Of a DNA stretch of 57,436 bases, positions 5,323-57,436 are shown in pieces; the stretch's first letter is position 1, and every line of letters starts with the position of its first letter. Origin of the DNA: Actinomycetota bacterium (lineage in GTDB: Bacteria > Actinomycetota > Acidimicrobiia > Spongiisociales > ZC4RG35); contig JAYEGJ010000126.1 in the NCBI GenBank assembly GCA_034658975.1, positions 1 through 57,436 of the forward strand, read 5' to 3'. The notes under the pieces are model-generated. The model was not told the DNA's origin. It ran no database searches and saw only the letters and a list, made by a program, of their open reading frames with translations. The position numbers and the translations under genes are program-made.

Positions 5323-5464
5323 AGGCTACGACCTCATCCATTCCCGCTCAGGGTCAATACTCGCGCCTGTCGTCATCGTCGGAGCCAGGGGCCGAGCACT
5401 TTGCGCCGACGGTCTTGGCGAGGGTGGAGTAGGTTCACTGTTCTTCCAAGTGAGGAGCAGAACC

Positions 5465-5851: not shown

Positions 5852-5914
5852 CAACCTCCAATTCAAACTCGCCCGACGCATCGGCAAGTAGAGCCATGTC
5901 GGTATCCTGAGTCG

Positions 5915-9460: not shown

Positions 9461-9529
9461 TCTGGAGTACCCGGTAACGAGTATCAGGTACCAGGACGAT
9501 GAAAAGCCCCCTCCCCGGCTGGAATCGGG

Positions 9530-11479: not shown

Positions 11480-11502
11480 AGTGTGTCTCCTTGGCCTGAC
11501 TG

Positions 11503-18855: not shown

Positions 18856-19780
18856 CCTGAGTCAGACCCGAGACGATGTACCTCTGGAGGAAGAGGAACA
18901 GGATGACAACTGGAACGCCGGCCATAAGGGCACCGGCGGCGAAGGGACCCCAGCGCTGGTTGAACTGGTCGCTCAGGAATCTGAACAGACCAACCGACAG
19001 CGTGTAGTTCTCCGGACTTCCTTGACCGAGAACCGCGTCGGCGAGGACGAAGTCATTGATCAGGAAAATGAACGACAGGAGGAAGACCACGGCGAGGATC
19101 GGTGCCACCAGCGGCAGGATGATCCTGAAGAAGACCTGATGGTGGCTGGCCCCGTCGACCTTGGCCGACTCGTCGAGATCCTTGGGGATCGTGTCGAAGA
19201 AGCCCTTCATCAGCCAGGTGTTCACGCCGAGAGCGCCGCCCAGGTACACGAGCGTCAAGCCGGATTTGGTGCCGAGGCCGATGGCCGGGAACACACCCTT
19301 GATCTGGACCATGATCAGGAAGATGGCCACGAAGGCGAGAATCTGAGGGAACATCTGGATCAGAAGCACCGCAAGCAGGCCAACCCGACGCCCCTGGAAG
19401 CGCATTCTCGAGAAGGCATAAGCGGCCAAAGCCGAGAGGAAGGTCATGATGACCGAGGCCCCACCGGCGATCATGATCGTGTTCAGATACCAACTCGAGT
19501 AGGGAATCGCGCCGGAGAAGAGCACCTTGTAGTTCTCGAGCGTGAACGAGTCCGGGATCAGCCTCTGCGAGGTCAGAGTCCCGAGAGGATTGAGCGAGGC
19601 GGAGACCACCCAGATCACGGGGAATAGGGCAAAGATGAGGGCTGCCCAGGCCACCAGATGCCTCCAGCCAACAGTTCTGAACCATTTGATGAGCGGAGTG
19701 CGGCCGCCAACGACGGCTCCGGTACCGGCCTTGGTCTTGACTTGGGCGGGAACTCTGCCCTCTTGTGGAATTGCCGTCAT
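18839..19780 (-). CDS. malG: Maltose/maltodextrin ABC transporter permease (MalG-type)
   Basis: 313 aa, 6 TM, EAA loop DESAKVDGASHHQVFFRIILP. Confidence 0.9.
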   Translation of the reverse strand: MTAIPQEGRVPAQVKTKAGTGAVVGGRTPLIKWFRTVGWRHLVAWAALIFALFPVIWVVSASLNPLGTLTSQRLIPDSFTLENYKVLFSGAIPYSSWYLNTIMIAGGASVIMTFLSALAAYAFSRMRFQGRRVGLLAVLLIQMFPQILAFVAIFLIMVQIKGVFPAIGLGTKSGLTLVYLGGALGVNTWLMKGFFDTIPKDLDESAKVDGASHHQVFFRIILPLVAPILAVVFLLSFIFLINDFVLADAVLGQGSPENYTLSVGLFRFLSDQFNQRWGPFAAGALMAGVPVVILFLFLQRYIVSGLTQGAVKG

Positions 19781-21390: not shown

Positions 21391-21397
21391 TTGTCGA

Positions 21398-37685: not shown

Positions 37686-38819
37686 ATGCGTATAGCAGTA
37701 CCCAAGGAGTCGGAGGGAGAGCGACGCGTCGCCATCACTCCACAGGTCGCCCAACGACTCATTGATGCCAAACACTCGATCGTTATTGAAACCGGTGCCG
37801 GGCTCGGCGCCGGCTTCACCGATGACTCCTACCGGGAGGTCGGAGCCGAAGTAATGCCCGACCCGTTCACCGGTTCCGATTTGGTGGTCGCCGTGGGACC
37901 GCCAACACCTTCGCAGGCAGAACACGTGCCCGAGGGTGGCGCCCTCGCCGGGTTCCTCGACCCGTTCGCCTCGGCCGACCTGGTGAAGGTGCTGACCAGG
38001 CGGCGAATCACTTCATTTGCCGTGGAGGCCATCCCCCGTACGACATTGGCCCAGAGCATGGATGCCCTTTCGTCGCAGGCAACGGCGGCCGGCTATCACG
38101 CCGTTCTGCTGGCTGCCACGGAGACACCGAGAATCTTCCCGATGCTGACGACCGCCGCTGGAACGATCCCACCCGTCCGGCTGCTGGTGCTCGGCGCAGG
38201 AGTTGCCGGGCTCCAGGCCATCGCCACTGCGAAGAGACTCGGAGCGGTGGTGTCGGCCTACGACATCCGGCCCGAGGTCCAGGAACAGATCGAATCGCTG
38301 GGAGCGAAGTTCATCGCGGCCCCGGTCGACGAGTCCGCTGCCAGTTCATCGGGCTACGCCAAAGAGGTGGCCGATGAGACCCAGAGGCGCCAGCAGGCAG
38401 CACTCGCCGACGCCGTGGCCGACGCGGACGTCGTCATCACGACGGCTCAGGTCCCGGGCCGGGCGGCGCCACTCCTCATTTCCCGAGAGATGGTCGACCA
38501 GATGAGCCCCGGATCGGTGATCGTCGACGTGGCCGCGCCAACAGGCGGCAACTGTGAGCTCACCCACCCAGGTGAGACCTACGACTACAACGGCATCCAG
38601 ATCATCGGCCCGACCGATCTCCCCAGCAGAGTGGCTGTTGACGCCAGCCAGATGTACGGGCGAAACCTCGCTGCCTTCATCGCCCGAATCTCCGATGAGG
38701 AAGGCGAAGTCACATTCGACTTCGATGACGAGATCGTTTCCGGAGCCTGCATCACCCACGGAGGGCGGGTGACCCACCCGGTGACCCGACGAGCCCTCGG
38801 AATGGATGGTGAGGAATGA
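37686..38819 (+). CDS. pntAA: NAD(P) transhydrogenase subunit alpha part 1
   Basis: 377 aa. AlaDH/PNT N- and C-domains, LVLGAGVAGLQAIATAKRLGA. Confidence 0.9.
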   Translation: MRIAVPKESEGERRVAITPQVAQRLIDAKHSIVIETGAGLGAGFTDDSYREVGAEVMPDPFTGSDLVVAVGPPTPSQAEHVPEGGALAGFLDPFASADLVKVLTRRRITSFAVEAIPRTTLAQSMDALSSQATAAGYHAVLLAATETPRIFPMLTTAAGTIPPVRLLVLGAGVAGLQAIATAKRLGAVVSAYDIRPEVQEQIESLGAKFIAAPVDESAASSSGYAKEVADETQRRQQAALADAVADADVVITTAQVPGRAAPLLISREMVDQMSPGSVIVDVAAPTGGNCELTHPGETYDYNGIQIIGPTDLPSRVAVDASQMYGRNLAAFIARISDEEGEVTFDFDDEIVSGACITHGGRVTHPVTRRALGMDGEE

Positions 38820-39112
38820 GTCCTCTCGTAGTCGGGATCACGGTCTTCGTCCTCGCCGCCTTCGTCGGCTTCGAGGTCATCTCCAAGGTCCCACCCACGC
38901 TGCACACGCCCCTCATGTCCGGAGCGAATGCCATCTCCGGTATCACGATCATCGGCGCTATCGCGGCCGCCGGACTCGGCTCGACGCAGTTGGCCCAGGT
39001 GCTGGGCTTCCTGGCTGTCGTGATGGCAACCATCAACGTGGTCGGCGGGTTCCTGGTCACCGATCGGATGCTCGAGATGTTCAAGAGCAGGCGTCAGCGA
39101 GACGCCGAATGA
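38816..39112 (+). CDS. pntAB: NAD(P) transhydrogenase subunit alpha part 2 (membrane)
   Basis: 98 aa, 3 TM, with 4-nt overlaps on both sides. Confidence 0.9.
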   Translation: MSPLVVGITVFVLAAFVGFEVISKVPPTLHTPLMSGANAISGITIIGAIAAAGLGSTQLAQVLGFLAVVMATINVVGGFLVTDRMLEMFKSRRQRDAE

Positions 39113-40476
39113 TCGAACTTCTCTATCTCGCCGCAGCCGTCCTGTTCATCATCGGCCTGAGGAAACTCGGCGGGCCGCGCACGGCTCGATCCGGGAACCG
39201 CCTGGCCGCCGTGGGCATGCTCGTCGCCATCGTCTTGACACTCGTCGCCCAGGACATCGTCAACTGGGGAACGGTTGTCGCCGGTCTGGTGGTCGGGGCG
39301 GGTCTGGGTGCATGGTTCGCGGTTCGGGTTCAGATGACCGCGATGCCTCAGATGGTCGCGGCATTCAATGGGTTTGGTGGCATCGCCTCTGCGCTGGTCG
39401 CCTCCGTCGCCGTCCTCGAATCGGACCTGGCTTCGATAGCGGCCGAGACCAGCACCTCGATCCTCGCCTCGATCATCATCGGTGCGGTCACCTTCACCGG
39501 GAGCTTCGTCGCCTTCGGAAAGCTTCAGGGCATCCTCCCCGGCAGGCCACTTCTGTACCCGGGCCAGAAGGTCGTCAACGGGTTGCTCATGCTCGCCCTC
39601 ATCGGTGTTGCCGTCTGGGGCGCCGTCGCAGAGGATCCGGCCGGGTTCTGGATCGTGGGCGCGATCGCACTGGTCATCGGCGTGTTGACGGTCGTCCCGA
39701 TCGGCGGCGCCGACATGCCCGTCGTGATCTCGCTGCTCAACTCGTTCTCCGGGTTGGCGGCAGCGGCGGCCGGATTCGCCATCGAGAGCAATGCTCTCAT
39801 CATCGGCGGGGCACTCGTCGGGGCGGCGGGGATGATCCTCACCTTCCAGATGACGGAGGCGATGAACCGATCTCTGGGTAATGTTCTGTTCGCCGGATTC
39901 GGATCGGGCGAGGGCGGCGGTCCGGCCGGCCCGATCGACGAGAAGCCGGTCAACCGTGCTACCGCCGACGATGTCGCTATCGCTCTCGGCTATGCCGAAT
40001 CGGTGATGATCGTTCCCGGCTACGGCCTGGCGGTCGCCCAGGCTCAGCACGCGGCGAGAAAGCTCGCCGATGCCCTTGAGGACGCCGACATCAAGGTGCA
40101 ATACGCCATTCACCCGGTTGCGGGACGCATGCCCGGGCACATGAACGTGCTGCTTGCCGAGGCCGATGTTCCCTACGAACAGCTTCTCGATCTCGAGCAG
40201 GCCGACCCACAGCTTCCAGAGACCGACGTGGTTCTGGTCCTCGGTGCCAACGACGTGGTCAACCCGTCGGCGCGTGACGATCCGGGCTCGCCCATCTACG
40301 GGATGCCGATCCTCAACGTTGACTACGCAGGTCGTGTCATCGTGGTGAAGCGGAGCCTGTCGCCCGGGTTTGCCGGCATCGACAATCCGTTGTTCTACGA
40401 GGACAACACGTTGATGTTCTTCTCCGATGCCAAGGCGGCTCTCGAAGACACTCTGGCGGCGCTCAAGACGCTGTAA
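39109..40476 (+). CDS. pntB: NAD(P) transhydrogenase subunit beta
   Basis: Trimmed to ATG 39109 (MIELLYLAAAVLFIIGL). C-terminal NADP(H) domain GYGLAVAQAQH...HPVAGRMPGHMNVLLAEA. Confidence 0.9.
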   Translation: MIELLYLAAAVLFIIGLRKLGGPRTARSGNRLAAVGMLVAIVLTLVAQDIVNWGTVVAGLVVGAGLGAWFAVRVQMTAMPQMVAAFNGFGGIASALVASVAVLESDLASIAAETSTSILASIIIGAVTFTGSFVAFGKLQGILPGRPLLYPGQKVVNGLLMLALIGVAVWGAVAEDPAGFWIVGAIALVIGVLTVVPIGGADMPVVISLLNSFSGLAAAAAGFAIESNALIIGGALVGAAGMILTFQMTEAMNRSLGNVLFAGFGSGEGGGPAGPIDEKPVNRATADDVAIALGYAESVMIVPGYGLAVAQAQHAARKLADALEDADIKVQYAIHPVAGRMPGHMNVLLAEADVPYEQLLDLEQADPQLPETDVVLVLGANDVVNPSARDDPGSPIYGMPILNVDYAGRVIVVKRSLSPGFAGIDNPLFYEDNTLMFFSDAKAALEDTLAALKTL

Positions 40477-40946: not shown

Positions 40947-42446
40947 TCAACTGCTCCCGCAGTCGCCTTCCGCTCGGAGAGAATCGGTATTCGTGAGTAG
41001 CTCAAAGGAGGCGGCCAGTTCCTCACACGGCGGCCTTCCGATCCTCACCATGGGGGCGTCTTCTTCCAGGAGGCCCCAGCTGATTACCTCCGCGGCGTAC
41101 TCATCCCCTCGTTCGACCCACGGCAGGCTGTCGTCATCCCAAGACTCCCGTCCGGTGGACTGCAAAAGGCGATCCTGGGTCGCGACGTCGACGTGATCGA
41201 TGATCCAGGCGTGGGCGAGCTCATGCAGAACCGAATTCCGCACACTGAGAGAGGGCTTGACGCAGGCTGATGCCCCGGGGCAGAGGTCACTCTCGAAGAG
41301 GCATAGAAACAGCTCACGAGAATCCTCATCTTGAAGAAGGCGTCCAGACCGTTCATCACATCGGCGGCTGGGCTCGAACGTGACGGTGTCGAAGCGGGGT
41401 TCTGCCAGGCCTGCCTTGCTGAAGCGCTTGAGTCCCGTCAGGAGAAGCTCTTCCAGTCGAGGCGTCCCGTTGTATATCTCGAGCTCATGACCACCTTCGG
41501 TGCGAACAGTGCCGGGGGCGACTTGGTCGCTGGGCCGGGGAAGCTCAAGCCCAGTCCACCATCCGTTGGGCAGGCTTTCGGATCTGCACCGGGAGAATGA
41601 TTCGACTTCCTCATAGCGGGCCTCCTCAAGGATCTGCCCTCCGACCGCTTGCCACACAACCGCTACCTGACGGCTGCACTCGTTTCTATCCGTCATGTTG
41701 TAGATAGCAACTGCGCGAGCCGGGTCTATCCCATAGTCGGCCGGTCCGAGGAAGATCGCCGGGCCACTCGCCTCCACGGTGTTGACCGTTTGAGTCAGGT
41801 CGATTCTGTCGACTCTCCCGATGGAGGAGCTTGCTTCGAGGATCGAGCCGAGTCCTTGCGCCGCAGTCCCGGTCAACGATTTGGTGAGTGTTGCCTGGCT
41901 GGAGTAGACGTTGCCGAGGTCGTCGACGCTGGCATCCGTCCACACGTCGGCATAGTCGCGGTAGAGGTTCTCGTAACGGGAAACGACGTCGGGTGATGCA
42001 CGAAGACCAACTTCCAGCCATGCGCTGTGGTCGTAGACCGTCTCCTCCGTGATCAAACCGTCCTCGAGAGTGCTGACTACCACGCTCAGTCCGCCACCCG
42101 CCGTGTCCGATCGGATGAGAGCGAGAGCTCCTTGAGGACCGAGGTGGATGTCGACGATGTCGTATCCAAGATCCCCCGAGTTCCAGCGGAGGAGATCACG
42201 CACCAAGAGGCCGCCCCGGACCCCCCCTCGCCATCTCTCCTGGAAGGCATTGGGGGAGTAGAAGTCCAAAACGCCGTAGTAGTCGTTGGCCGTATAGGCC
42301 ACGGCCAGTTCATCGAAATAGCCAATGGCCTCGTCCCCCCATGGGACTGGGTCGTTGACGGCGCTGATCGATCCGCAGGCCGTCGCCATAGTGGCGAGGA
42401 TGATGCCTGCGGAACGGAATCTCAGTCGGCGCAGTATCCGGATCAC
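40947..42446 (-). CDS. Lipoprotein with HExxH motif (putative secreted metallopeptidase-like protein)
   Basis: 499 aa. Lipobox ATMATAC and VLHELAHAW near the C-terminal third. Otherwise unrecognised. Confidence 0.6.
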   Translation of the reverse strand: MIRILRRLRFRSAGIILATMATACGSISAVNDPVPWGDEAIGYFDELAVAYTANDYYGVLDFYSPNAFQERWRGGVRGGLLVRDLLRWNSGDLGYDIVDIHLGPQGALALIRSDTAGGGLSVVVSTLEDGLITEETVYDHSAWLEVGLRASPDVVSRYENLYRDYADVWTDASVDDLGNVYSSQATLTKSLTGTAAQGLGSILEASSSIGRVDRIDLTQTVNTVEASGPAIFLGPADYGIDPARAVAIYNMTDRNECSRQVAVVWQAVGGQILEEARYEEVESFSRCRSESLPNGWWTGLELPRPSDQVAPGTVRTEGGHELEIYNGTPRLEELLLTGLKRFSKAGLAEPRFDTVTFEPSRRCDERSGRLLQDEDSRELFLCLFESDLCPGASACVKPSLSVRNSVLHELAHAWIIDHVDVATQDRLLQSTGRESWDDDSLPWVERGDEYAAEVISWGLLEEDAPMVRIGRPPCEELAASFELLTNTDSLRAEGDCGSS

Positions 42447-45150: not shown

Positions 45151-47364
45151 TCATGAGCGCCCCTCGAAGAGAGCTCTGAGTCCTTCCTGGTCTACCCAGA
45201 CTGAGCCGATCCAGGAGTCTGCAAGGACTCGTCCCTGGGGGGAGTCCTCCCATACCTGGGTGATCTCGATGAGCCCTTCGTACAGGGTGGGGTCAACGGC
45301 TTCCCAAGTTGTGGGCCAGTCTTGGCCGTCTCCGCCGAATACCAGGAAGGTGGGCTCATAGGTCGCTCGGTTGACTTGCCCAATCACCGAGCGCGGGTTC
45401 CCTCCGTCCCCGATGTGTCCGACATAGACGTACTGATCTGTGAGGAGCAGCCAGGATGGGACAGCGGAGGGCATGGGATATGCCCGGAGGATGGTCCCGT
45501 CAAGACCTGAGAGGAGCAGCTCTCCGTACTCCTGTGTGCAGATCACTTCGGTCGGATAGCTCCCGTTGATATTGCCGAACAGACAGTCGTTGTCCCGAGC
45601 CATCGCGATGAAGCCGGACGAAGGGACTTCGATTGTCCAGTTCCCTTCCGGCGTCGCTATTGCTGGGAGTAGCGGGACCGATCGGATGGTCTTGGGAAGT
45701 GCAGCTAGCTCGGGAACGACTCCGTCTCGCTCTGCGTCTTCGCCCGACTGGGAGGCCGGGTCGTCGAGGCTTCCCGGTAGCAGTTCTGTTGACTCCAGAA
45801 CACCTCCCAGCATCCATCCGTGCGTTCCCAACTCCGTCAAGACCAGGTCCCATTCGGCACCTTCGCTGTCAGTTGTCCGGCGTTCCAAGACGGCGACGAA
45901 ATCGCCCAACTCCAATTCCTCGACCGGGATGAAGTTGGTTCCCGGTCCGGCGTAGACGGTTGATCCTGCCTCCCGGGACACGGTCTCGAAGTGCTGGGTG
46001 GCCACGGCGCCCTGGAGCGTGCATTCGTCCACGTTGCGCCACACCGCTTCGAGGTCGCACTCTCTGGTGAGCAGTGCCCCGGTGTTGATGAAGAGGGTCG
46101 ATGCCCACTCTTCGCGGGTGGTGACACCAGAACACACAGTCTCGCCCCAACACAGCGTGCTCCTATCGACCCCCTCAACCTCGGGGAAATGGAACACTGT
46201 GGCGAAGAGTGGATCGAACAGCGACAAGACCTGGTGGGACGTGAGCGATCCGGGATCCCAAGTCTGGCCACTCTCGTCGAGAACTGCTACCCGAGCCACC
46301 CCTTCTGAGTTCAGGGTGATATCAACTGTCAGGCCCTCTGGCCCGAAGTCGCTGGTAACGAGCGCGGTCACCGCCTGCTCCAGGGTCGGTTCAGGCCCTG
46401 CCTGGTATATCGGGATCGGCGGGAGTCCTGGGTCTCCGTTGCAGAGCGTGAAGAAGGCGATCGGCCCTGTCGGCGTTGACTGCAAGGTTGGACACGAGAT
46501 GGTTGGCAGCAGATCACCATCTCGATCAACTGGGTCCCCTTGTACAACATGGAGGGTTCCGCCCAGAGCGCTGACGATTGTGTCGCATTCCACCTGGTCG
46601 CCCGAACAGTCAACTCTCCAGTTGTCGCCGTAGACCTGAGCCGACGTCTGCCCGTCATTCGTATACCGCGCCGCTGTGGTGACGACATCCTCGATCACCT
46701 TTGCACCCGGGGCGCCTACGTAATACACCATGAATTGGCTGTGGAGCGTGCAGATCGCCGAGTCGAACTCGTTCTGCGGGTTGGGGCGTCCTGGAAAACT
46801 TGTCGCCTGCCACCTGTCACAAGTGAAGCCGGCAGCCTCGACCAGATCACGCATCTCATGTACATCTGTGAATGTCGACGACGAGGTCGTTTCGCTTCTC
46901 TGGTCTTCCCACATCTCCGACACGGCCACTCCCATGTGCTGGTTGAAGCACTCGAAGAACCGACTATCGGGATTCGACGAGTCTGCGCCTGCAGCAAACG
47001 AGTTGTTGAAGAACCCTCTCTCAACGGTGAACTCCACCCTGGTCGTACCCTGAGCTACACAGTCGACGACTGCCTTGCCGGCAGCCTCGTACTCGGCTTC
47101 AGTGACGACACCGTCGGCGAGAATCTCAGCTGGGGTTGGCGCATCGGCCACCTGGGCGGGGGGTTGAATCTGGCCGCCAACAGTGGCAGTGACCCACACG
47201 ACCCCGGCAAGGCCAGCGACGGCAAGCGCCGGGATCCCAACTCTTCGTCGGATCTGACGGCTCCGACCACGCCTCATCGTCTCCGACGAACCGCGAGGGT
47301 TCCATGGGTCCTGTCGGGCGGCCTCAGCTTCGAGCATCGAACGAATCTGGTCGTCGGTCTTCAT
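45151..47364 (-). CDS. Single-pass membrane protein coupled to an ECF sigma factor (anti-sigma-like) with large extracytoplasmic region
   Basis: 737 aa. ATGA overlap with the sigma gene, a short cytoplasmic N-terminus, one TM (IPALAVAGLAGVVWVTA) and an SH3b-like segment (VYAGPGTNFIPVEELELGDFVAV...HGWM). Confidence 0.65.
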   Translation of the reverse strand: MKTDDQIRSMLEAEAARQDPWNPRGSSETMRRGRSRQIRRRVGIPALAVAGLAGVVWVTATVGGQIQPPAQVADAPTPAEILADGVVTEAEYEAAGKAVVDCVAQGTTRVEFTVERGFFNNSFAAGADSSNPDSRFFECFNQHMGVAVSEMWEDQRSETTSSSTFTDVHEMRDLVEAAGFTCDRWQATSFPGRPNPQNEFDSAICTLHSQFMVYYVGAPGAKVIEDVVTTAARYTNDGQTSAQVYGDNWRVDCSGDQVECDTIVSALGGTLHVVQGDPVDRDGDLLPTISCPTLQSTPTGPIAFFTLCNGDPGLPPIPIYQAGPEPTLEQAVTALVTSDFGPEGLTVDITLNSEGVARVAVLDESGQTWDPGSLTSHQVLSLFDPLFATVFHFPEVEGVDRSTLCWGETVCSGVTTREEWASTLFINTGALLTRECDLEAVWRNVDECTLQGAVATQHFETVSREAGSTVYAGPGTNFIPVEELELGDFVAVLERRTTDSEGAEWDLVLTELGTHGWMLGGVLESTELLPGSLDDPASQSGEDAERDGVVPELAALPKTIRSVPLLPAIATPEGNWTIEVPSSGFIAMARDNDCLFGNINGSYPTEVICTQEYGELLLSGLDGTILRAYPMPSAVPSWLLLTDQYVYVGHIGDGGNPRSVIGQVNRATYEPTFLVFGGDGQDWPTTWEAVDPTLYEGLIEITQVWEDSPQGRVLADSWIGSVWVDQEGLRALFEGRS

Positions 47365-47924
47365 GACAGGTCCTTCCTCAAGGCTTCCAAGCCGCGATGC
47401 AGGCGGCTCTTGATGGTTCCTTTTGCTACGCCGAACGCCTTGGCCATATCTGCTTCCGACATGTCCAGCAGATATCGGGCAACCACGACTTCCCGCTGGT
47501 GGACCGGCAGCCTGCGAAGGGTCGCGACCAATTTCGGGTCGGGTACTTGCGGATCGTCTTGGCCAACGTCAGGGACGGGGAGATTCGACCGGTATCGGCG
47601 GCGCTTGAGACGGTTCCTCGCCCAGTTCATCGCCACCACGTACACCCAACCCTCGGGGTTGGCCATGACAGACACCTTCTCCCACCGCTCGTATGCCCTG
47701 ACCATGGCTTCTTCGGTCGCGTCCGCAGCGAGATCGGCATTGCCGGTACCAACAGCGACAGCACGATGAACCTGATGGCCAGCACGGCTGTAGAAAGATT
47801 CGAAGGACTCAACTCTCAAGTCAGCACCCACGGTCGTCTCGGCATACATCATCACATAGACAGTCCGGAGCCCGCTTCGGTTCCCAGAACCCGACCGAAG
47901 AAAGGCGTCCTCGAAGCTACCCAC
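47361..47924 (-). CDS. ECF-type sigma-70 family factor
   Basis: Region 2 (FESFYSRAGHQVHR...EEAMVRAYERW...EGWVYVVAMNWARN) and region 4 (LPVHQREVVVARYLLDMSEADMAKAFGVAKGTIKSRL). The true start is probably the ATG at 47852 (MMYAETT). Confidence 0.85.
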   Translation of the reverse strand: MGSFEDAFLRSGSGNRSGLRTVYVMMYAETTVGADLRVESFESFYSRAGHQVHRAVAVGTGNADLAADATEEAMVRAYERWEKVSVMANPEGWVYVVAMNWARNRLKRRRYRSNLPVPDVGQDDPQVPDPKLVATLRRLPVHQREVVVARYLLDMSEADMAKAFGVAKGTIKSRLHRGLEALRKDLS

Positions 47925-50647: not shown

Positions 50648-51991
50648 ATGAGCAGTCCGGCCGAAACGGCAGCGGAGCAGAAGACGCTTCGGACGGTGGT
50701 TCGAAGTGAGTGGAGCGAACTCGGCACCATGGGAAGAAGCGCCCTGGTCGCATTGGGCGTGTCAGCCATCGTCGCCGTGGTTCTTGCGGTCTCAATCCCC
50801 CGACAAGTGGAACGGCATCTGATCCAGGGGGAGATCGAAACGTTCACCAGGATCGCCCAGGGGATGGCGGACGAAGGGATGATTCCTGTCGCATCGAACG
50901 ATACACAGGCCCTCGCCGAACTCGACGAAATGGTGAGGACGCGGCTGCTCGGCTCCAACACCGTGAGGGTCAAGGTCTGGGCACCGGACGGCACCATCAC
51001 CTACTCAGATGCCTCCGACGTCATCGGTCAGACCTTTCCCCTCTCGGAAGACCGCATCGAAGCCTTCCAAGGCGAAACAGTCTCGGAAACACCCGATCTC
51101 TCACTACCCGAGAATGCCTACGAGCGGACACTTCCTCCGGTCCACGAGTTCTACATCCCGGTATATGGAGAATCGGATACGGTCGAGGCGGTCTTCGAGG
51201 TCTATCACCTGGTGGAGCCGATCGAGACGACCGTCGGCAACGTTCGTCGATACACATGGACCAGCATCGCCGTCAGCTTCGTGCTGCTCGCGGTATTCCT
51301 CTCCGTTCTCATCATCGCCAACGGCCGAGCACTGACAAGAAGGCAGCGCATGACGGACGAGCTGTTTGGTGACCTCGTTCGATCCCAAGCCGACGAGCGC
51401 AGCAGAATCATTGGTTCCCTGCACGACGACATCGGTCAGTCGCTGTATCGCATCCATTACGGGCTCGAGGACATGAAGTCACGCGTCGACGCCGACGAGG
51501 CACTTGCCGAAGACCTGGACCGTCTCGGGGCCCTGACCAGCCAGGTGGACAGGGCGCTGAGGACCGAACTGCGGTTGCTTCAGTACGGAACGGGAGAAGA
51601 ACTCGCCCTCGGGCCGGCATTAGACGAACTCGCCGAGGTGACCGAGATGGAGTCGGATCTCGACGTCACAGTCGAGACCAGCACGGATCGTGCGCTTTCC
51701 CCTGCCGGGAGAGTCACTCTATTTCGAGCGGCGCGCGAGGCCGTCACCAATGTGCGCAAGCATGCCCAGGCGACCTCGGTGACGATTCGAGTCGATAGCA
51801 AAGGCAGCAACGTGAGGCTCGAAGTGGTCGACGATGGAATCGGAATCACCAATGAAGAGGCCCTCGGGATATTGATCACAAGAGAGCGCCTGGAAGCACT
51901 CGGTGGAGGCCTCAGGGTGACGGCTGATCGGGAGGGCGGAACGAGATTCATGGCCTGGCTCCCTGCCGAAGTCGTAGAGGTGACAACTTGA
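50648..51991 (+). CDS. Sensor histidine kinase, HisKA_3/NarL-partner type, with about 170-aa extracytoplasmic loop
   Basis: Two TM helices flank a sensor loop. H-box SLHDDIGQSL, then HATPase_c (REAVTNVRKHA, DDGIGI, GGLRV). Confidence 0.85.
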   Translation: MSSPAETAAEQKTLRTVVRSEWSELGTMGRSALVALGVSAIVAVVLAVSIPRQVERHLIQGEIETFTRIAQGMADEGMIPVASNDTQALAELDEMVRTRLLGSNTVRVKVWAPDGTITYSDASDVIGQTFPLSEDRIEAFQGETVSETPDLSLPENAYERTLPPVHEFYIPVYGESDTVEAVFEVYHLVEPIETTVGNVRRYTWTSIAVSFVLLAVFLSVLIIANGRALTRRQRMTDELFGDLVRSQADERSRIIGSLHDDIGQSLYRIHYGLEDMKSRVDADEALAEDLDRLGALTSQVDRALRTELRLLQYGTGEELALGPALDELAEVTEMESDLDVTVETSTDRALSPAGRVTLFRAAREAVTNVRKHAQATSVTIRVDSKGSNVRLEVVDDGIGITNEEALGILITRERLEALGGGLRVTADREGGTRFMAWLPAEVVEVTT

Positions 51992-52617
51992 GAGTCTTCC
52001 TCGCCGACGACCACCGCATCGTTCGTGAGGGGATCAGGACACTCCTGGCCTCCGAAGCCAACGTGGAGATCGTGGGCGAGGCATCGAGCGGAGACCAGCT
52101 TCTGGAATCGCTCGCCACCACTGATGTCGACGTGATCCTCCTCGACTTGAGAATGCCGGGTCTGAGTGGCCTCGACGTGCTCCAAGAAATGCAGCAAGGA
52201 GAAACGGACACGCGTGTCATCGTCCTTTCCATGCACGACGATCCCTCTTTCGTGAAGAGAGCAATCGAGCTGGGGGCGTCGGGGTATCTCCTCAAGTCGG
52301 TTGGCAAGGAAGAACTGCTCCGGGCTCTCGACATCGTCGCCGGAGGGGGCTCCTACGTTCAGGGCGAGATCACCGCGCCGCTCATCGCTCACATCGTCGA
52401 GCCATCGAAGGCGGTATCCGTCAGCAACCTGAGCAGTCGAGATATCAAGATGCTCGAGATGTTGGCTCAAGGGCTGGACAATCGGGCCATGGCCAAGCTG
52501 CTCGAGATGTCGGAGGCCTCAGTCAAGGCTCAGCTGCGCACGGTGTATTCGCGCCTCGAGGTCACCCGCCGATCCGAGGCCGTAGCCGTGGCCTTGCGCC
52601 TCGGCATCATCACCTAA
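51988..52617 (+). CDS. NarL/LuxR-family response regulator
   Basis: Receiver domain (FLADDH ... VILLDLRMPG ... K) plus a LuxR HTH (LSSRDIKMLEMLAQGLDNRAMAKLLEMSEASVKAQL). It has a 4-nt overlap with the kinase gene. Confidence 0.9.
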   Translation: MRVFLADDHRIVREGIRTLLASEANVEIVGEASSGDQLLESLATTDVDVILLDLRMPGLSGLDVLQEMQQGETDTRVIVLSMHDDPSFVKRAIELGASGYLLKSVGKEELLRALDIVAGGGSYVQGEITAPLIAHIVEPSKAVSVSNLSSRDIKMLEMLAQGLDNRAMAKLLEMSEASVKAQLRTVYSRLEVTRRSEAVAVALRLGIIT

Positions 52618-52805
52618 ACCCTTTGTGACCGTCTCTAGGGCCAAAGGTCCCATCGCAGGTATCTAACGGGTATCCAGCGACCCTCCCAACGATCTTCGAC
52701 AACGCCGATTTGACCCAAGACGGACGCATCGTCACCCCGTAATCAATGAAGTGACGGCACCTGTCTCGCCGCGCGTGGCAGGACACACATACCGACGGAG
52801 GTTCG

Positions 52806-54494
52806 ATGATGAGGCACAAACGACTTGCGATCATTGGCGTACTCGCCTTGATCGCTGCGTCGTGCACGGGTGGCGAAGCCGATGACACGACAACAACCCC
52901 CGAGGCGCCAGCGACCACCGTCGCCCCCGCCACTACGGCCGCTCCGACAACGACAGAGGCCACGGTGACGACGACGACGGAGGAACCCGCTCACCCGGAG
53001 ACCGACATGCGGTCGCTGGATGCTGGTGAGGCTGCGATCACGGTTGATGGTGATGCTGCTGATTGGGGTGATGTGGCCGGCCTGTCGATGACGTTGGAGC
53101 CGATCGTGGATCGTGCTGATGATCCGCTCGAAGACAAGGACGTCACCATCCGGATGGCTCATGACAGCGACCTGCTGTATGCGCTGTTCACCGTCGAGGA
53201 CGACTACGACTGGGTCGCTGACGACCACAACCTGTCGGCTGCACTTGCGGTCATGTTCCCGGTTGACACCGGTGGTCCGCATATGGGCGCCGACGATGAA
53301 GCAGGCGAAACATCCACCGGGATGGTGGACATCTGGCACTGGGAGCTGGATTGTGCTGCCGGCGAGTTGAACGGCGGAGGAGCCGGACATCCTGCCGGTG
53401 AAGGCAAGGATCCGGGCAACGACGACGTCTGCAACATGGACGACGAATGGGCCACCGACGCAGAAACCCGCGAGGACGACAACACCGCAACCGGTGAGAA
53501 CTCGTTGACGGGTGTGTGGTGGCACTCCAACCCCGTCGAGAATGGTGCTCCTGGCACCTGGTACTTCGAAATGTCCCGACCCCTCGACACCGGAGACGAG
53601 CAGGACGGACTGTTCACAGTTGGTGAGTCCACACTGCTGGCACTCGCCTACTGGGACGCCGACTTCGGACCCGACGGATGGGACGACTCCACCCACGTCC
53701 AATCCTCCAACCAAGGCTGGATCAACGTCAATCTGATAGCGGGATCGGCCGCCGAGGCAACACGGTCGTTGGATGCTGGTGAGGCTGCGATCACGGTTGA
53801 TGGTGATGCTGCTGATTGGGGTGATGTGGCCGGCCTGTCGATGACGTTGGAGCCGATCGTGGATCGTGCTGATGATCCGCTCGAAGACAAGGACGTCACC
53901 ATCCGGATGGCTCATGACAGCGACCTGCTGTATGCGCTGTTCACCGTCGAGGACGACTACGACTGGGTCGCTGACGACCACAACCTGTCGGCTGCACTTG
54001 CGGTCATGTTCCCGGTTGACACCGGTGGTCCGCATATGGGCGCCGACGATGAAGCAGGCGAAACATCCACCGGGATGGTGGACATCTGGCACTGGGAGCT
54101 GGATTGTGCTGCCGGCGAGTTGAACGGCGGAGGAGCCGGACATCCTGCCGGTGAAGGCAAGGATCCGGGCAACGACGACGTCTGCAACATGGACGACGAA
54201 TGGGCCACCGACGCAGAAACCCGCGAGGACGACAACACCGCAACCGGTGAGAACTCGTTGACGGGTGTGTGGTGGCACTCCAACCCCGTCGAGAATGGTG
54301 CTCCTGGCACCTGGTACTTCGAAATGTCCCGACCCCTCGACACCGGAGACGAGCAGGACGGACTGTTCACAGTTGGTGAGTCCACACTGCTGGCACTCGC
54401 CTACTGGGACGCCGACTTCGGACCCGACGGATGGGACGACTCCACCCACGTCCAATCCTCCAACCAAGGCTGGATCGAAGTAACGATCAACTGA
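52806..54494 (+). CDS. Lipoprotein with two tandem EB_dh/DOMON-like (putative heme-b or CBM9-like) domains
   Basis: 562 aa. Lipobox LIAASC, a T/P/A-rich linker, then two identical 238-aa modules (ITVDGDAADWGDV...IRMAHDSDLLYALFTVEDDYDW...DIWHWELD...WYFEMSRPL...AYWDADFG) reminiscent of the ethylbenzene-dehydrogenase gamma/DOMON-like fold. Confidence 0.75.
   Translation: MMRHKRLAIIGVLALIAASCTGGEADDTTTTPEAPATTVAPATTAAPTTTEATVTTTTEEPAHPETDMRSLDAGEAAITVDGDAADWGDVAGLSMTLEPIVDRADDPLEDKDVTIRMAHDSDLLYALFTVEDDYDWVADDHNLSAALAVMFPVDTGGPHMGADDEAGETSTGMVDIWHWELDCAAGELNGGGAGHPAGEGKDPGNDDVCNMDDEWATDAETREDDNTATGENSLTGVWWHSNPVENGAPGTWYFEMSRPLDTGDEQDGLFTVGESTLLALAYWDADFGPDGWDDSTHVQSSNQGWINVNLIAGSAAEATRSLDAGEAAITVDGDAADWGDVAGLSMTLEPIVDRADDPLEDKDVTIRMAHDSDLLYALFTVEDDYDWVADDHNLSAALAVMFPVDTGGPHMGADDEAGETSTGMVDIWHWELDCAAGELNGGGAGHPAGEGKDPGNDDVCNMDDEWATDAETREDDNTATGENSLTGVWWHSNPVENGAPGTWYFEMSRPLDTGDEQDGLFTVGESTLLALAYWDADFGPDGWDDSTHVQSSNQGWIEVTIN
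53010..53723 (+). repeat. Tandem duplication copy 1 (period 753 bp)
   Basis: By direct comparison, 53018-53723 is identical to 53771-54476. There is one synonymous C/T difference at 53016 vs 53769. Confidence 0.95.
53763..54476 (+). repeat. Tandem duplication copy 2
   Basis: See copy 1. The copies are separated by a 39-nt in-frame linker (53724-53762, NVNLIAGSAAEAT). Confidence 0.95.
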
Positions 54495-54567
54495 TCCGAT
54501 GGTGACGAGTCCTTGGGTCTCTCGACGAGACCCGAGGGCTCTCACTTATTCAGGCGGGAGGAGGTCT

Positions 54568-54801
54568 GTGAGCGGTAGAAAGAAATCGATAGGCCAACTT
54601 AGGGCGCTGCTCTCGGCCGTCGTGATAGTCCTCTACTTCGCATTGACCACGGTGTGGATCCCCTCGGCCCTGCTCAAATCGTCACTACTCACGGGGACCG
54701 GCCGCAACACCGCCGACCTCGTTGCGCTCGCAGTGTGGGGGGCGGGCCTGGGATTTGGGATCTGGGGGCTGCGCAAGGCTCAGGATCGAGACCTGATATG
54801 A
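54568..54801 (+). CDS. Small 2-TM membrane protein (77 aa)
   Basis: GTG at 54568 preceded by GGAGGAGG. Two hydrophobic helices. Its stop overlaps the next ATG (ATGA). Confidence 0.5.
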   Translation: MSGRKKSIGQLRALLSAVVIVLYFALTTVWIPSALLKSSLLTGTGRNTADLVALAVWGAGLGFGIWGLRKAQDRDLI

Positions 54802-56612
54802 CCGACCTCGAGTACTTCGACCTCAACATCCCCTGCCAGGCCGCCTGCCCGGTCCACACCAACGCCGGTGCCTACGTGGCGGCCATAGCCGACGGCGACG
54901 ACCGCATGGCCTACTTGACGGCCCGGCTGCCGAATCCCTTCGCCTCGGTCTGCGGCAGGGTTTGCGCCGCTCCCTGCGAGGACGCCTGCCGACGGGGTGA
55001 GATCGATCGACCCGTTGCGATTCGAGCCCTCAAGAGATTCGTCACCGAGACCTTCGGCGCAGAGGCACGGGGCAAGAGCCTGTGGTCGATCAGTGAGAAC
55101 GGGCATCGCGATGAGCGGCCGCAATCGGTTGCCATTGTCGGTGGCGGGCCGGGGGGCCTCGCCGCCGCCCACGATCTTCGCCTCCTCGGCTACCGGGTGA
55201 CCCTCCACGAGGCCAGCTCGGAACTCGGGGGCATGATGCGGCTCGGCATACCCGAATACCGGCTTCCCCGGGAACTCCTCGACCGCGAGATCCAGGGCAT
55301 CGTCGAACTCGGAATCGACGTACATCTCGGCTCGAGGTTGGGAGAGGACGTTTCGCTGAGAACCCTGCGCGAGAGCCATAACGCAGTGTTCCTCGCCATC
55401 GGTGCCACCCAGGCCCGTGATCTCGATATTCCCGGACATGATGCTGATGGCGTCTTCAAAGCACTGGAGTTCCTGCTCAACGTCAACCGTGGTTTCCATG
55501 TGGACGTTGGGGAGAGAGTGGTCGTGGTCGGTGGCGGAAATGTCGCCATGGATGCCGCCCGGACCGCCCTGCGGTCCGCCGCATACCGCGAAAAAGTGGA
55601 GTCGGAGTTCACGGAGTCGGTCGTCAAAGATGAGCAGTCCGGGTATGCCATCGACGTTGCCCGCAGTGCTCTACGTGCCGGCGCCACCGATGTCACCATC
55701 ATCTCTCTCGAGGCGCGGGACGAGATGCCCGCTGACGACTTCGAAATCGAGGAAGCAGAGGCCGAAGGCATTCGTTTCGTGCACCGACGCGGACCACAGG
55801 CGGTGCTGACCGAGGCTGGCCAGGTTTCCGCACTCATGACCGTGGGCGTGACGCGGGTCTTCGATGCCGAAGGACGCTTCAGCCCTGAATTCGACGCCGA
55901 GGACGTCGAGACCGTCGAAGCGGACTCGGTAATCCTTGCCATCGGTCAGGCGATAGACATCGAGAGTCTCGGCGAAGACGGGCCTGAAATCTCTCCCCGA
56001 CGGTCCATCGCCGTGGATGCCGAGACGCTTAGGACGAGTCTCCCCGACGTTTGGGCAGGAGGCGATGCTGCCTTCGGACCACGCATTCTCATCGATGCCG
56101 TCGCTGACGGTCGTCGCGCCGCGGCCTCCATCCATGCATTCCTTTCACCCGATGACCCGACGACTGCCCATCGTCCCGGCTCGATGACCGAGATCGAGGG
56201 TTTCCATCGTCTCTCAGATCGATACGACGAATGGGAGCGTGTTCCGATTCCGTCATTGCCCACCCAACGACGGATCGGGCTTCAGGAGGTGGAGACCGGG
56301 TTCACCGAGGCTGAGGCCAGGCTGGAGGCGAGCCGTTGCCTGCGTTGCTTCCTCAACATCACCCTCGACGTCGGGTCGTGCGTCTTGTGCGGTCTCTGCG
56401 CCGATGTCTGCCCGACGGATGTGATCTCGTTGGTTCCCTCCGAGGAGCTCAACGGCCAACCCGGGAAGACTGCCCTTCTTCTCGATGAATCGCGATGCAT
56501 CAGGTGCGCCCTGTGCGTCGAACGTTGCCCGAGCCGGGCCCTGTCGATGGGCATGTGGTCCGGGTTCGGCATTCCGGAGAAGGTTCCGGTGCTGATAGGA
56601 GGTCCAGCGTGA
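54798..56612 (+). CDS. GltD-like FAD/NAD(P)H-dependent Fe-S oxidoreductase fused to a 2x[4Fe-4S] ferredoxin domain
   Basis: Trimmed to ATG 54798. N-terminal Cys clusters (CQAACP, CGRVCAAPCEDAC), two dinucleotide folds (VAIVGGGPGGLAAA; VVVVGGGNVAMDAA), and C-terminal CVLCGLCADVCP and CIRCALCVERCP. Confidence 0.85.
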   Translation: MTDLEYFDLNIPCQAACPVHTNAGAYVAAIADGDDRMAYLTARLPNPFASVCGRVCAAPCEDACRRGEIDRPVAIRALKRFVTETFGAEARGKSLWSISENGHRDERPQSVAIVGGGPGGLAAAHDLRLLGYRVTLHEASSELGGMMRLGIPEYRLPRELLDREIQGIVELGIDVHLGSRLGEDVSLRTLRESHNAVFLAIGATQARDLDIPGHDADGVFKALEFLLNVNRGFHVDVGERVVVVGGGNVAMDAARTALRSAAYREKVESEFTESVVKDEQSGYAIDVARSALRAGATDVTIISLEARDEMPADDFEIEEAEAEGIRFVHRRGPQAVLTEAGQVSALMTVGVTRVFDAEGRFSPEFDAEDVETVEADSVILAIGQAIDIESLGEDGPEISPRRSIAVDAETLRTSLPDVWAGGDAAFGPRILIDAVADGRRAAASIHAFLSPDDPTTAHRPGSMTEIEGFHRLSDRYDEWERVPIPSLPTQRRIGLQEVETGFTEAEARLEASRCLRCFLNITLDVGSCVLCGLCADVCPTDVISLVPSEELNGQPGKTALLLDESRCIRCALCVERCPSRALSMGMWSGFGIPEKVPVLIGGPA

Positions 56613-57343
56613 AGCCCTCACTTACGGAACGTCTCAGAGAGACAAATGTGGGCCGGTCGATGTTCCGGATACCGGAGCGAAGGACCGACCGAGAGCGCGC
56701 CGGGGCTCACTGGTCCAACTTCTTCCTCCACATCTACCCCGTCAAGGTGCGACGCGAGCAGCTTCACTTCCGCTACTCGTGGTATCTCGGCATCGCCTCG
56801 CTGACGTTGTTCGCATCACTGGTCGCCTCGGGCATCTACCTCATGTTCTTCTATGTGCCATCACCGACAACCGCCTACGGAGACATCCAGATTCTCCAGA
56901 CGCAGGTGGCGTTCGGCCAGTTCATGCGCAACATCCACAGGTGGTCGGCTCATCTCATGGTCGTCGCCGTCATCGCCCACATGGCCCGGGTCTTCTACCG
57001 CGGTGCGTACAAGGCCCCGCGTGAGTTCAACTGGGTGATTGGAGTGGTACTGCTCATGATGACGCTGTTGCTCTCCTTCACCGGATATCTCCTGCCATGG
57101 GACCAACTCGCCTATTGGGCAATCACCGTCGGCACCTCTCTTGCTGCGTTCGTCCCGTTCATCGGTCAGGAAATCTCGCGCCTTCTGCTCGGCGGCCCCC
57201 AGGTGAGTTCGGCCACACTTCTTCGCTTCTACGTGCTGCATGTCGCCCTGCTCCCGACGATCGTCGTGTTCGGGGTCGCCATCCATCTTTGGCGCTGGCG
57301 CAAGGACAGCACGCTCGATACCGAGGGAGACAGTGATGTCTGA
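56609..57343 (+). CDS. Cytochrome b6-type (N-terminal, di-heme) cytochrome b
   Basis: GTG 56609 overlaps the upstream TGA. It resembles my recollection of cytochrome b6 (IHRWSAHLMVVAVIAHMARVFYRGAYKAPREFNWVIGV...GYLLPWDQLAYWA...LRFYVLHVALLP...IHLWR), with four conserved His. Confidence 0.85.
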   Translation: MKPSLTERLRETNVGRSMFRIPERRTDRERAGAHWSNFFLHIYPVKVRREQLHFRYSWYLGIASLTLFASLVASGIYLMFFYVPSPTTAYGDIQILQTQVAFGQFMRNIHRWSAHLMVVAVIAHMARVFYRGAYKAPREFNWVIGVVLLMMTLLLSFTGYLLPWDQLAYWAITVGTSLAAFVPFIGQEISRLLLGGPQVSSATLLRFYVLHVALLPTIVVFGVAIHLWRWRKDSTLDTEGDSDV

Positions 57344-57436
57344 GAATCCCGAGACCTTCGAAGGTCGCCGTGTGCTCGGCATAGTCCCGGGCAAGCCCCC
57401 GGTGGGAACGACCAAAGATCCCGAAAGCCAGGATCT
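57336..57436 (+). CDS. Partial CDS (5' end), next gene of the cytochrome b operon
   Basis: ATG at 57336 overlaps the cytochrome b gene by 8 nt and the frame stays open to the window end (MSENPETFEGRRVLGIVPGKPP...). Identity is unknown; a subunit-IV-like partner would be the expected position. Confidence 0.4.
   Translation, partial: MSENPETFEGRRVLGIVPGKPPVGTTKDPESQD

Follow-up and report, generated by a model that had tools for sequence, protein, structure and literature searches.

A predicted NAD(P)-linked Rieske/cytochrome b6 complex of Acidimicrobiia with a candidate haem-b lipoprotein as its outer partner

What kind of respiratory complex would combine a cytoplasmic, NAD(P)-binding flavoprotein with a split cytochrome b and a lipoprotein on the outer face of the membrane, and in which direction would electrons run through it? 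This question is raised by the last genes of contig JAYEGJ010000126.1 (Actinomycetota bacterium, assembly GCA_034658975.1), the whole 57,436 nucleotides (nt) of which are called the window here. Behind a two-component system, the window encodes a lipoprotein with two EB_dh-type modules, a small membrane protein, a flavoprotein resembling GltD (the small subunit of glutamate synthase) and a cytochrome b6. As judged from these genes together with those of relatives (contig loci bearing homologues, labelled L001 and so on), the operon is predicted to code for a respiratory complex of seven subunits in an Acidimicrobiia bacterium, with its 5' two-thirds inside the window. The core of this complex is of a known, biochemically uncharacterized class. 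Our favored reading, to which we assign a probability of roughly 45%, is that a quinol-oxidizing Rieske/cytochrome b complex makes NAD(P)H by electron bifurcation at its quinol-oxidizing (Qo) site, with the lipoprotein as the outer carrier.

The seven open reading frames (ORFs) at 50648-57436 all lie on the + strand, and ORF reading together with Pfam searches confirmed the gene calls, domain calls and overlaps proposed in an initial annotation, which had been made from the letters of the window alone. A sensor histidine kinase gene (50648-51991; HisKA_3 and HATPase_c) overlaps by 4 nt the gene for a NarL/LuxR-type response regulator (51988-52617; Response_reg 3e-30, GerE 3e-11). An intergenic region of 188 nt (52618-52805), a candidate target of the regulator with GGAGG 7 nt ahead of the next ATG, leads to the gene for the lipoprotein (52806-54494; 562 amino acids (aa), two EB_dh domains of PF09459, E 4e-26). 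Then come the genes for the small two-helix membrane protein (longest ORF 54499-54801), the flavoprotein (54798-56612; 604 aa, Fer4_20, Pyr_redox_2 and a Fer4_7 dicluster) and the cytochrome b6-type subunit (56609-57343; 244 aa, Cytochrome_B PF00033, 1.5e-45), and finally the first 33 codons of subunit IV (57336-57436; Cytochrom_B_C), which are cut by the end of the window. The small protein and the flavoprotein are joined by an ATGA overlap at 54798 (translational coupling), the flavoprotein and cytochrome b6 by a GTGA overlap at 56609, and cytochrome b6 and subunit IV by an 8-nt overlap (57336-57343). In a scan for promoter and terminator consensus sequences, matches were no more frequent than in shuffled sequence, and there was no sigma-70 consensus in 52618-52805. 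Composition is even along the window (~60-64% G+C); as to host affiliation, the closest homologues of the flavoprotein all come from metagenome-assembled genomes of Acidimicrobiia, and a bacterial proteasome activator gene is also present in the window.

What lies beyond the window can be read from its relatives at 79-84% identity. The N-terminus of the fifth ORF counted from the lipoprotein gene (MSENPETFEGRRVLGIVPGKP...) matches the start of subunit IV in L001 and L002, whose proteins bear the Qo motif APWY; since these 33 terminal codons match the N-terminus of subunit IV in relatives, the window is considered to be cut inside a Rieske/cytochrome b6 operon. The full order (kinase, regulator, EB_dh lipoprotein, small protein, flavoprotein, cytochrome b6, subunit IV, Rieske protein and membrane-anchored dihaem cytochrome c) is seen in L001, L002/L003, L004, L074 and L078, L003 being the same contig as L002 from another assembly. 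In relatives, the last four subunits measure 244, 173, 162-168 and ~234 aa, respectively, and the Rieske protein carries CPHLGC...CPCHG (L001-L004, L074 and L078). The expectation that a Rieske protein and subunit IV would follow downstream was thus borne out in these loci, in all of which a dihaem cytochrome c was found in addition. The last 47 nt of the window had no exact match among metagenome contigs in a scan for its extension. In one of the relatives, L077 (9144-10583), the flavoprotein gene is internally deleted (residues ~352-497 are missing) and the remaining operon is intact, so that a pseudogene or an assembly error is possible. About 5 kb downstream of the operon in L002 (16182-20491), furthermore, are genes for a plastocyanin/azurin-type cupredoxin, TatA, an 874-aa molybdopterin oxidoreductase and a Fer4_11 subunit; the cupredoxin and TatA genes are present also in L003, the contig of which stops inside an uncharacterized ORF at the position of the molybdoenzyme, and none of these genes was found near L001 or in the window.

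The flavoprotein is composed of a GltD/NfnB-type Fer4_20 domain, Rossmann folds for flavin adenine dinucleotide (FAD) and NAD(P), and a C-terminal 2x[4Fe-4S] ferredoxin domain, and its 16 Cys residues are sufficient for four Fe-S clusters. It has more than 8000 homologues, the nearest with 79-86% identity. Its best match in the PDB is 9bov_A (1.3e-96; deposited as a molybdopterin oxidoreductase), and then 9n5u_A (deposited as NfnA), 8oh5_C (deposited as a formate dehydrogenase subunit), NfnI (5jca_L) and GltD; these nearest relatives of solved structure are NAD(P)H flavoprotein modules of the GltD/NfnB type. All of the gltD models in NCBIfam scored below their cut-offs. A true glutamate synthase small subunit or NfnB was considered and rejected: no gene for a GltB or NfnA partner is present, the neighbors encode membrane redox subunits, and the protein has 604 aa with an added ferredoxin domain as opposed to ~450-480 aa for GltD proper or NfnB.

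Cytochrome b6 has the four His residues expected of a dihaem protein in the initial annotation, namely, His110/His124 and His211/His226 for haems bL and bH, with a b6-type spacing of 15 residues in helix D, and its best PDB matches are cytochrome b6 of the b6f complexes (1.4e-42). The protein contains no Cys; Tyr59 aligns with Cys35 of the CxGG motif, the haem-ci ligand of b6f, and that Cys is missing in all 49 flavoprotein-linked cytochrome b6 homologues whose alignment spans the site. An extra His (His41, in FFLHIYPVKV) is invariant in 52/52 GltD-linked homologues from all phyla, and was found neither in b6f sequences nor in the single PEWY-type paralogue inspected (L025). The nearest curated models in NCBIfam are ExtP and ExtQ, with scores just or well below cut-off; ExtP is the best for cytochrome b6 (261.8 bits against a cut-off of 290), and the actinobacterial model bc1_QcrB_actin gave 113 bits against 500. 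Every linked subunit IV bears the Qo motif APWY, and these sequence features place the core in the clade that Kao and Hunte named after APWY, which corresponds to subfamily G of Dibrova et al. A split cytochrome b is listed by Kao and Hunte for Ilumatobacter coccineus YM16-304. The short cytochromes b of subfamily G are reported to co-occur with NAD(P)-binding, Cys-rich Fe-S oxidoreductases (PMC5600118).

With one genome taken per species, the flavoprotein gene adjoins those of cytochrome b6, subunit IV and the Rieske protein in ~45 loci of five phyla, and the analogy with the Rieske/cytochrome b complexes of anammox bacteria, which had been drawn before, is sound. The order in Acidimicrobiia is small protein, flavoprotein, b6, subunit IV, Rieske protein and cytochrome c; that in Acidobacteriota, Planctomycetota, Myxococcota and Calditrichota is flavoprotein, Rieske protein, b6 and subunit IV. 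In L028 and L029, the two loci of Acidobacteriota that were examined, an octahaem ORF comes after subunit IV.

The small protein most likely starts not at 54499, the start of its longest ORF, but at GTG 54568, which is preceded by a Shine-Dalgarno sequence (GGGAGGAGG) and yields 77 aa, the length of its homologues. It had no match in Pfam or NCBIfam, and no conserved His or Cys appeared in the alignment of its homologues; conserved instead are a motif, YFxxxTxW(L/I)PS, and a basic C-terminal tail. Only its first helix was scored by hydropathy, and the second was read from the sequence and the homologue alignment. The predicted membrane-spanning topology of the gene products holds. The small protein is encoded upstream of the GltD-like gene in nearly all loci of Acidimicrobiia. 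In three of these (L007 8994-9998, L011 4774-5571 and L014 9090-9989), it forms the C-terminal part of a fusion that begins with a signal peptide, followed by a monohaem cytochrome c domain and one extra transmembrane helix. From this fusion, the small protein is read as a membrane subunit that would tether a carrier on the outer face, and its upstream neighbor as the gene of that carrier.

In the window, the gene in this upstream position encodes the lipoprotein. A signal peptide was found by hydropathy, and Cys20 of the lipobox, read from the sequence, is conserved in at least 90% of homologues. A Thr/Pro/Ala-rich tether of ~45 residues (residues ~21-66) is followed by module 1 (67-316), a linker of 13 aa and module 2 (320-562). 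The AlphaFold2 model of one module (predicted local distance difference test score, 80; predicted template modelling score, 0.84) was best matched in Foldseek by NxrC of Kuenenia (7b04_C, 1.9e-10) and next by EbdC (2ivf_C, 4.2e-9), which are γ-subunits of enzymes of the type II dimethyl sulfoxide (DMSO) reductase family; members of carbohydrate-binding module family 9 (CBM9) came third (1i82_A, 3.4e-6; 7nwn, 7.6e-5), 3-5 orders weaker than NxrC/EbdC. NxrC is also the sole sequence match of the module in the PDB. The ligands of haem b in NxrC are Met155 and Lys305 (PMC8387239). Met155 is in SPRMGD between the strands ALMFP and NLWHW, and the module has GPHMGAD between AVMFP and DIWHWE, that is, in the same loop; the Met-Gly pair is invariant in 32 close and 32 distant homologues with 25-89% identity. 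No Lys is conserved in the region of Lys305, and the sole candidate for the second ligand is hence the His of THVQS (His231 of the module, corresponding to His297 and His548 of the full protein), which is conserved in at least 90% of homologues down to 25% identity. Haem b is therefore probably bound by Met160/His297 in module 1 and by Met411/His548 in module 2. The proposal that these are EB_dh haem modules thus holds in fold and in the retained Met and needs amendment in the second ligand, which is probably His and not Lys. The family is small, with 386 clusters at 50% identity in a set of 1.84 billion representatives. Some of its distant members (25-40% identity; for example, P0286, P0281 and P0305) end in PGF, a hydrophobic helix and a basic tail, resembling archaeal PGF-CTERM, and others are Cys-rich with a hydrophobic C-terminus; the Met-Gly and the His are retained in these. 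As another candidate identity, a γ-subunit of a molybdoenzyme was rejected: no genes for a molybdopterin α-subunit or an Fe-S β-subunit are present in the window or in L001, and a molybdoenzyme is encoded 5 kb off only in L002.

The duplication of the modules noted previously extends to exact identity at the DNA level. Positions 53017-53723 are the same as 53770-54476 over 707 nt, with a period of 753 nt and unrelated flanks; on the + strand, copy 1 spans 53010-53723 (714 nt) and copy 2 spans 53763-54476, and a unique linker of 39 nt parts them. The repeat was found by a repeat search and a script, and was not reported by Tandem Repeats Finder, the longest period of which is 500. L001 has its own module pair (8205-9665), 99.86% identical over 720 nt with a similar linker, in a gene that is only ~78% identical to that of the window. 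Module pairs are 100% identical over 689-730 nt in L081, L084, L092 and L124, and diverged elsewhere (94%, 87% and 76%); L094 has an array of at least four modules, and the closest relatives L002-L004 have single-module genes. This looks like concerted evolution of EB_dh modules with changes in copy number, and the simplest reading is that unequal recombination or gene conversion adds, removes and homogenizes copies in the tandem array. An assembly artefact was rejected as the source of the identical modules because the end of copy 1 runs through the unique linker into the start of copy 2 and because the same architecture recurs in independent assemblies; diverged pairs, furthermore, exist as well.

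In the loci of Acidimicrobiia without the lipoprotein, the slot of its gene holds a monohaem cytochrome c (L007, L011, L014 and L056). Genes for the haem-copper oxidase subunits COX1/COX2 adjoin the operons in L006, L007, L011 and L014. Beside COX1/COX2 in L014, a gene at 4264-6501 on the - strand encodes a 745-aa fusion of unusual architecture with an N-terminal cytochrome b domain, a 2x[4Fe-4S] ferredoxin domain, an FlpD/MvhD-like domain and, at the C-terminus, a cytochrome c domain; weak cytochrome b matches similar to this fusion protein are present in L006 and L011.

A metagenome survey by a profile of the module gave 80 loci, and the 44 with a flank of at least 4 kb were counted. Rieske/cytochrome b genes are within 4 kb of the lipoprotein gene in 19 of the 44, with the flavoprotein in 12 of those 19, and a module of Fer4_11, NrfD and cytochrome c accompanies the lipoprotein in 15. 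Either type of module was found in 33/44 loci, and the number becomes 38/44 when c-type cytochromes are counted; of the six loci left over, four have no more than ~1 kb of sequence after the lipoprotein gene, and three of these four stop within ~130 nt of it. In operons of the Fer4_11/NrfD type (L076 4650-11570, L090 6719-13125, L082, L086, L099 and L100), the lipoprotein is encoded with a Fer4_11 protein, an NrfD-type protein and a monohaem cytochrome c of ~335 aa; they resemble a minimal alternative complex III, and a second HisKA_3 kinase, containing GAF, and a regulator are often there. L100 has the NrfD-type module directly after the flavoprotein-Rieske/cytochrome b operon, with the lipoprotein gene between both. 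The lipoprotein family is thus tied to quinol-oxidizing membrane modules generally and not to the flavoprotein specifically. Nor is the lipoprotein specific to this complex: the same family is also found by Rieske/cytochrome b operons lacking the GltD-like gene and by NrfD-type modules. As 33 of the 44 loci adjoin quinol modules, we read the lipoprotein as a tethered electron carrier of the outer face.

The two-component system is also linked with the lipoprotein. The kinase has two transmembrane segments ~150 residues apart that flank an outer loop, as seen by hydropathy; its closest NCBIfam models (MctS, UhpB, NarQ and NarX) are all far below cut-off, and the regulator matches MctR and NarL at ~1e-41, also below cut-off. 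The kinase is encoded directly upstream of the EB_dh gene in L001-4, L008, L015, L074, L077 and L078. In a first sample of loci, the kinase/regulator pair is adjacent in 10/12 with the EB_dh gene and in 0/8 without it (Fisher p = 7e-4), which supports the suggestion that the two proteins are regulators of the operon; in the second sample, namely, the counted loci of the metagenome survey, the pair is adjacent in 21/44. Probably, the HisKA_3/NarL pair switches on the version of the operon that contains the lipoprotein. This link fits a regulated expression of the carrier, but the same link keeps alive a different role for the lipoprotein.

Indeed, the lipoprotein might be mainly an accessory of the sensor, an extracytoplasmic haem protein that does not carry electrons for the complex but signals redox state, O2 or NO to the outer kinase loop. 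HbpS-SenS-SenR of Streptomyces, a three-component system, offers a comparison, and the trio of lipoprotein, kinase and regulator is kept even beside the NrfD-type module. We nonetheless find this role improbable, since the lipoprotein gene is transcriptionally tied to the genes of the complex: it is separated from the regulator gene by the gap of 188 nt, and its stop is 4 nt ahead of the longest ORF for the small protein and 73 nt ahead of the likely GTG. Also, the slot that it fills is that of a cytochrome c, no two-component system is near it in about half of its metagenomic loci, and tandem arrays of two to at least four modules suit a wire better. Still further from our reading, the modules could be haem-free CBM9-type binders of carbohydrate or cell wall that are unrelated to the complex, their identical copies being an artefact of assembly. 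The CBM9 matches in Foldseek are significant by themselves, the canonical Lys ligand is missing, and the EB_dh model TIGR03477 gives the lipoprotein only 44.7 bits against a cut-off of 169.85. NxrC and EbdC are, however, the better structural matches, NxrC is alone among sequence matches, and the Met-Gly in the loop of NxrC Met155 does not vary even among distant homologues; the family is strongly associated with genes of quinol oxidoreductases, and near-identical pairs with unique linkers occur in independent assemblies along with diverged pairs (76-94%). CBM9-type binding is thus highly improbable, and a CBM9 domain was rejected as the identity of the module in view of the weaker matches, the conserved Met and His, and the respiratory gene neighborhood.

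How would the complex work with the lipoprotein as its carrier? Menaquinol would be oxidized at the Qo site, where its two electrons would be split. One would move outward from the Rieske cluster to the dihaem cytochrome c, to the lipoprotein with its putative Met/His haem b and then to a terminal acceptor, with the lipoprotein as a mobile carrier doing the job of a soluble or fused cytochrome c in sister lineages. The other would move inward through haems bL and bH, possibly through an extra haem held by His41 of both monomers, and then through four Fe-S clusters to FAD for the reduction of NAD(P)+. NAD(P)H would in this way be made from quinol and paid for by the exergonic outward branch. 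The flavoprotein is supposed to dock to cytochrome b6 from the cytoplasmic side, and the lipoprotein to exchange electrons with the dihaem cytochrome c. A precedent has been proposed in Kuenenia, the complexes Kustd1480-1485 and Kuste4569-4574 of which would reduce NAD(P)+ by bifurcation at the Qo site (PMC12954380); in Kuste4571, AlphaFold3 places an extra inter-monomer haem b at His43, leading to four Fe-S clusters and FAD (PMC12954380). The position of His41 is like that of His43. Of the wire between cytoplasmic NAD(P)H and an outward-facing haem that the initial annotation envisaged, the topology survives, but the quinol-oxidizing Qo core with APWY was left out of it, and three redox pools instead of two would be coupled.

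Several points weigh against this scheme. The window itself has no Rieske and cytochrome c genes, which would be beyond its end, and the haem of the lipoprotein is predicted from conserved residues, with the Lys ligand of the EB_dh family absent. By co-occurrence, the lipoprotein is linked to the two-component system no less tightly than to the complex. His41 was matched to Kuste4571 His43 by position and not by alignment. Furthermore, no experiment is available for any complex of the APWY clade (PMC4122944), and the direction of the flow is therefore inferred only. With menaquinone, by our own estimate, the driving force for reducing NAD(P)+ while opposing the membrane potential is small, and a second source of NADPH is not obviously needed in a cell whose genome (in this very window) encodes the transhydrogenase PntAB.

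The flow could instead begin with NAD(P)H. As the donor, it would pass electrons via FAD and the Fe-S clusters to the haem bH/Qi side for the reduction of menaquinone, and the quinol would then be oxidized at the Qo site; this would make the complex a built-in NAD(P)H dehydrogenase plus complex III that feeds the cytochrome c or lipoprotein and then an oxidase. Electron transfer from NAD(P)H to menaquinone is strongly downhill, sister operons adjoin COX1/COX2 as would be the case for a main aerobic chain, bH lies exposed on the cytoplasmic side because all GltD-linked cytochromes b6 have lost the Cys for haem ci, and the chloroplast b6f binds ferredoxin-NADP+ reductase at the same face (cited in PMC5600118). 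Such a route was, however, judged wasteful for Kuenenia (PMC12954380), and the invariant His41 with its possible dedicated extra haem would be needless for a simple reduction of quinone; we therefore regard this donor role as rather unlikely, if clearly worth considering. Sequence does not decide between NAD(P)H input and bifurcation, the latter of which we hold most likely. The complex might also run uphill in reverse, as suggested for the APWY clade by Kao and Hunte (PMC4122944): an external or high-potential donor would reduce the lipoprotein and the dihaem cytochrome c, and the proton motive force or confurcation with NAD(P)H would drive the reduction of menaquinone, as in the reverse electron flow of lithotrophs. 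Related EB_dh subunits such as NxrC do take electrons from an oxidizing enzyme (PMC8387239). No donor-oxidizing enzyme is conserved beside the operon, though, the molybdoenzyme 5 kb downstream being confined to L002; the context in the window is heterotrophic (glycogen/maltodextrin genes and an acyl-CoA dehydrogenase gene), and the spending of NAD(P)H on quinone reduction would bring no obvious benefit. We consider a reverse run very unlikely.

Beyond the locus, a wider picture can be drawn tentatively, and we see it as possible but doubtful. The lipid-anchored EB_dh/DOMON-fold family with Met/His haem b would be a general outer-face carrier, a "cytochrome c substitute", of Acidimicrobiia and related monoderm Actinomycetota, serving NAD(P)-linked Rieske/cytochrome b complexes, plain Rieske/cytochrome b complexes and NrfD-type oxidoreductases alike. 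Gene conversion would keep its tandem modules (two to at least four) identical, and together they would form a haem-b wire able to reach through the cell wall. The NAD(P)-linked complex itself would act in ordinary aerobes as a true bifurcating NAD(P)+ reductase driven by quinol.

Elsewhere in the window, the genes for the proton-translocating NAD(P) transhydrogenase PntA/PntB are at 37686-40476, ~12 kb upstream, and are relevant to the NADPH supply of the cell. The glycogen/maltodextrin cluster at 9530-22753 on the - strand encodes a glucan phosphorylase, a 4-α-glucanotransferase of glycoside hydrolase family 77 (GH77), a GH57 protein (1020 aa, with a glucodextranase-type C-terminal module), an α-amylase and components of an ATP-binding cassette sugar transporter. 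At 45151-47924 on the - strand, the gene of an extracytoplasmic function-type sigma factor (47361-47924) overlaps by 4 nt an ORF of 737 aa (45151-47364), which has no Pfam match and possibly encodes a large anti-sigma factor or a membrane protein. Another ORF with no Pfam match (499 aa) is at 40947-42446 on the - strand.

Whether bifurcation at the Qo site can make NAD(P)H is an unsolved question of bioenergetics for the Rieske/cytochrome b complexes that bear an NAD(P) oxidoreductase, and such complexes have been studied solely in anammox bacteria, very slow growers for which genetics is not available. Acidimicrobiia commonly encode a simpler version that lacks haem ci and has two c-type haems in its cytochrome c subunit, and the NAD(P)-linked core occurs also in four other phyla; more tractable organisms and smaller complexes would thus become available for biochemistry and cryo-electron microscopy. 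The lipoprotein is a candidate for a new class of outer-face haem-b carrier in monoderm bacteria, and its EB_dh modules provide a clear case of tandem domain copies that are identical within genomes and diverge between them.

The closest known systems are R/b-2 and R/b-3 of Kuenenia (Kustd1480-1485 and Kuste4569-4574), with which the comparison was made by published description and not by direct sequence alignment. Alike, with the operon completed from relatives of the window, are the four-helix, b6-type cytochrome b with subunit IV and a Rieske protein, the cytoplasmic NAD(P) oxidoreductase in the same operon, the four Fe-S clusters leading to FAD, and the N-terminal His on b6, which is predicted there to hold a haem b (PMC12954380). 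The co-assembly of the flavoprotein with the membrane core is known from complexome profiling in Kuenenia only (cited in PMC12954380 and PMC5600118). In contrast, Kuenenia has hexa- or octahaem cytochromes and a protein like hydroxylamine oxidoreductase in place of the dihaem cytochrome c and EB_dh lipoprotein seen here; the window operon lacks the haem-ci Cys and additionally encodes a two-helix subunit and a two-component system, and the host is an Actinomycetota bacterium without an anammoxosome. Within the APWY clade, ExtOPQ of Geobacter (GSU2933-2932) is similar in its split cytochrome b and in APWY of subunit IV, in keeping with ExtP/ExtQ as the best models. The clade is mostly reported to have the haem-ci motif WCMGG, whereas the sequence in the window is WYLGI, and the ext cluster of Geobacter has a Rieske protein, cytochrome b and multihaem cytochromes, with no flavoprotein listed, as described in PMC5877670. 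Actinobacterial QcrCAB (bcc), taken together with the cytochromes c of Gram-positive bacteria that are tethered to the membrane or are lipoproteins, shares a monoderm host, a dihaem cytochrome c and membrane-tethered instead of soluble carriers, and the QcrC/QcrB models match weakly; QcrB is, however, unsplit with PDWY (PMC4122944), in contrast to the split, APWY-bearing core here, and QcrCAB has neither the flavoprotein nor an EB_dh carrier.

As for the lipoprotein, NxrC and EbdC (EB_dh, TIGR03477) are alike in the fold, the Met in a P-x-M-G loop and the WHW strand, but the lipoprotein differs from them in having no genes for α/β partners, His for Lys, a lipid anchor and tandem repeats. The cytochrome domain of cellobiose dehydrogenase, in which haem b is ligated by Met and His, and the DOMON haem-b domains are beta-sandwiches that serve as a tethered outer-face shuttle. 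The structural match to cellobiose dehydrogenase is weak (1pl3_A, E 0.16) and the sequence is very distant; the partner is a flavodehydrogenase there and a membrane quinol oxidoreductase here. Literature searches for an EB_dh/DOMON protein in a Rieske/cytochrome b operon, or for this complex in Acidimicrobiia, gave nothing relevant, and the names in public annotation are only "FAD-dependent oxidoreductase" and "ethylbenzene dehydrogenase-related protein". The combination of genes, which was called unusual in the initial annotation, is therefore so only in part: the core of a GltD-like protein and cytochrome b6 is widespread and published (PMC5600118, PMC12954380), but the addition of the lipoprotein was found in no paper. 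New in comparison with these systems are, namely, the variant in Acidimicrobiia, which lacks haem ci and has a dihaem cytochrome c, a two-helix tether and a two-component system, and the EB_dh-fold lipoprotein with tandem, homogenized modules and probable Met/His haem ligation, which is the outer partner probably not only of this complex but also of other quinol oxidoreductases.

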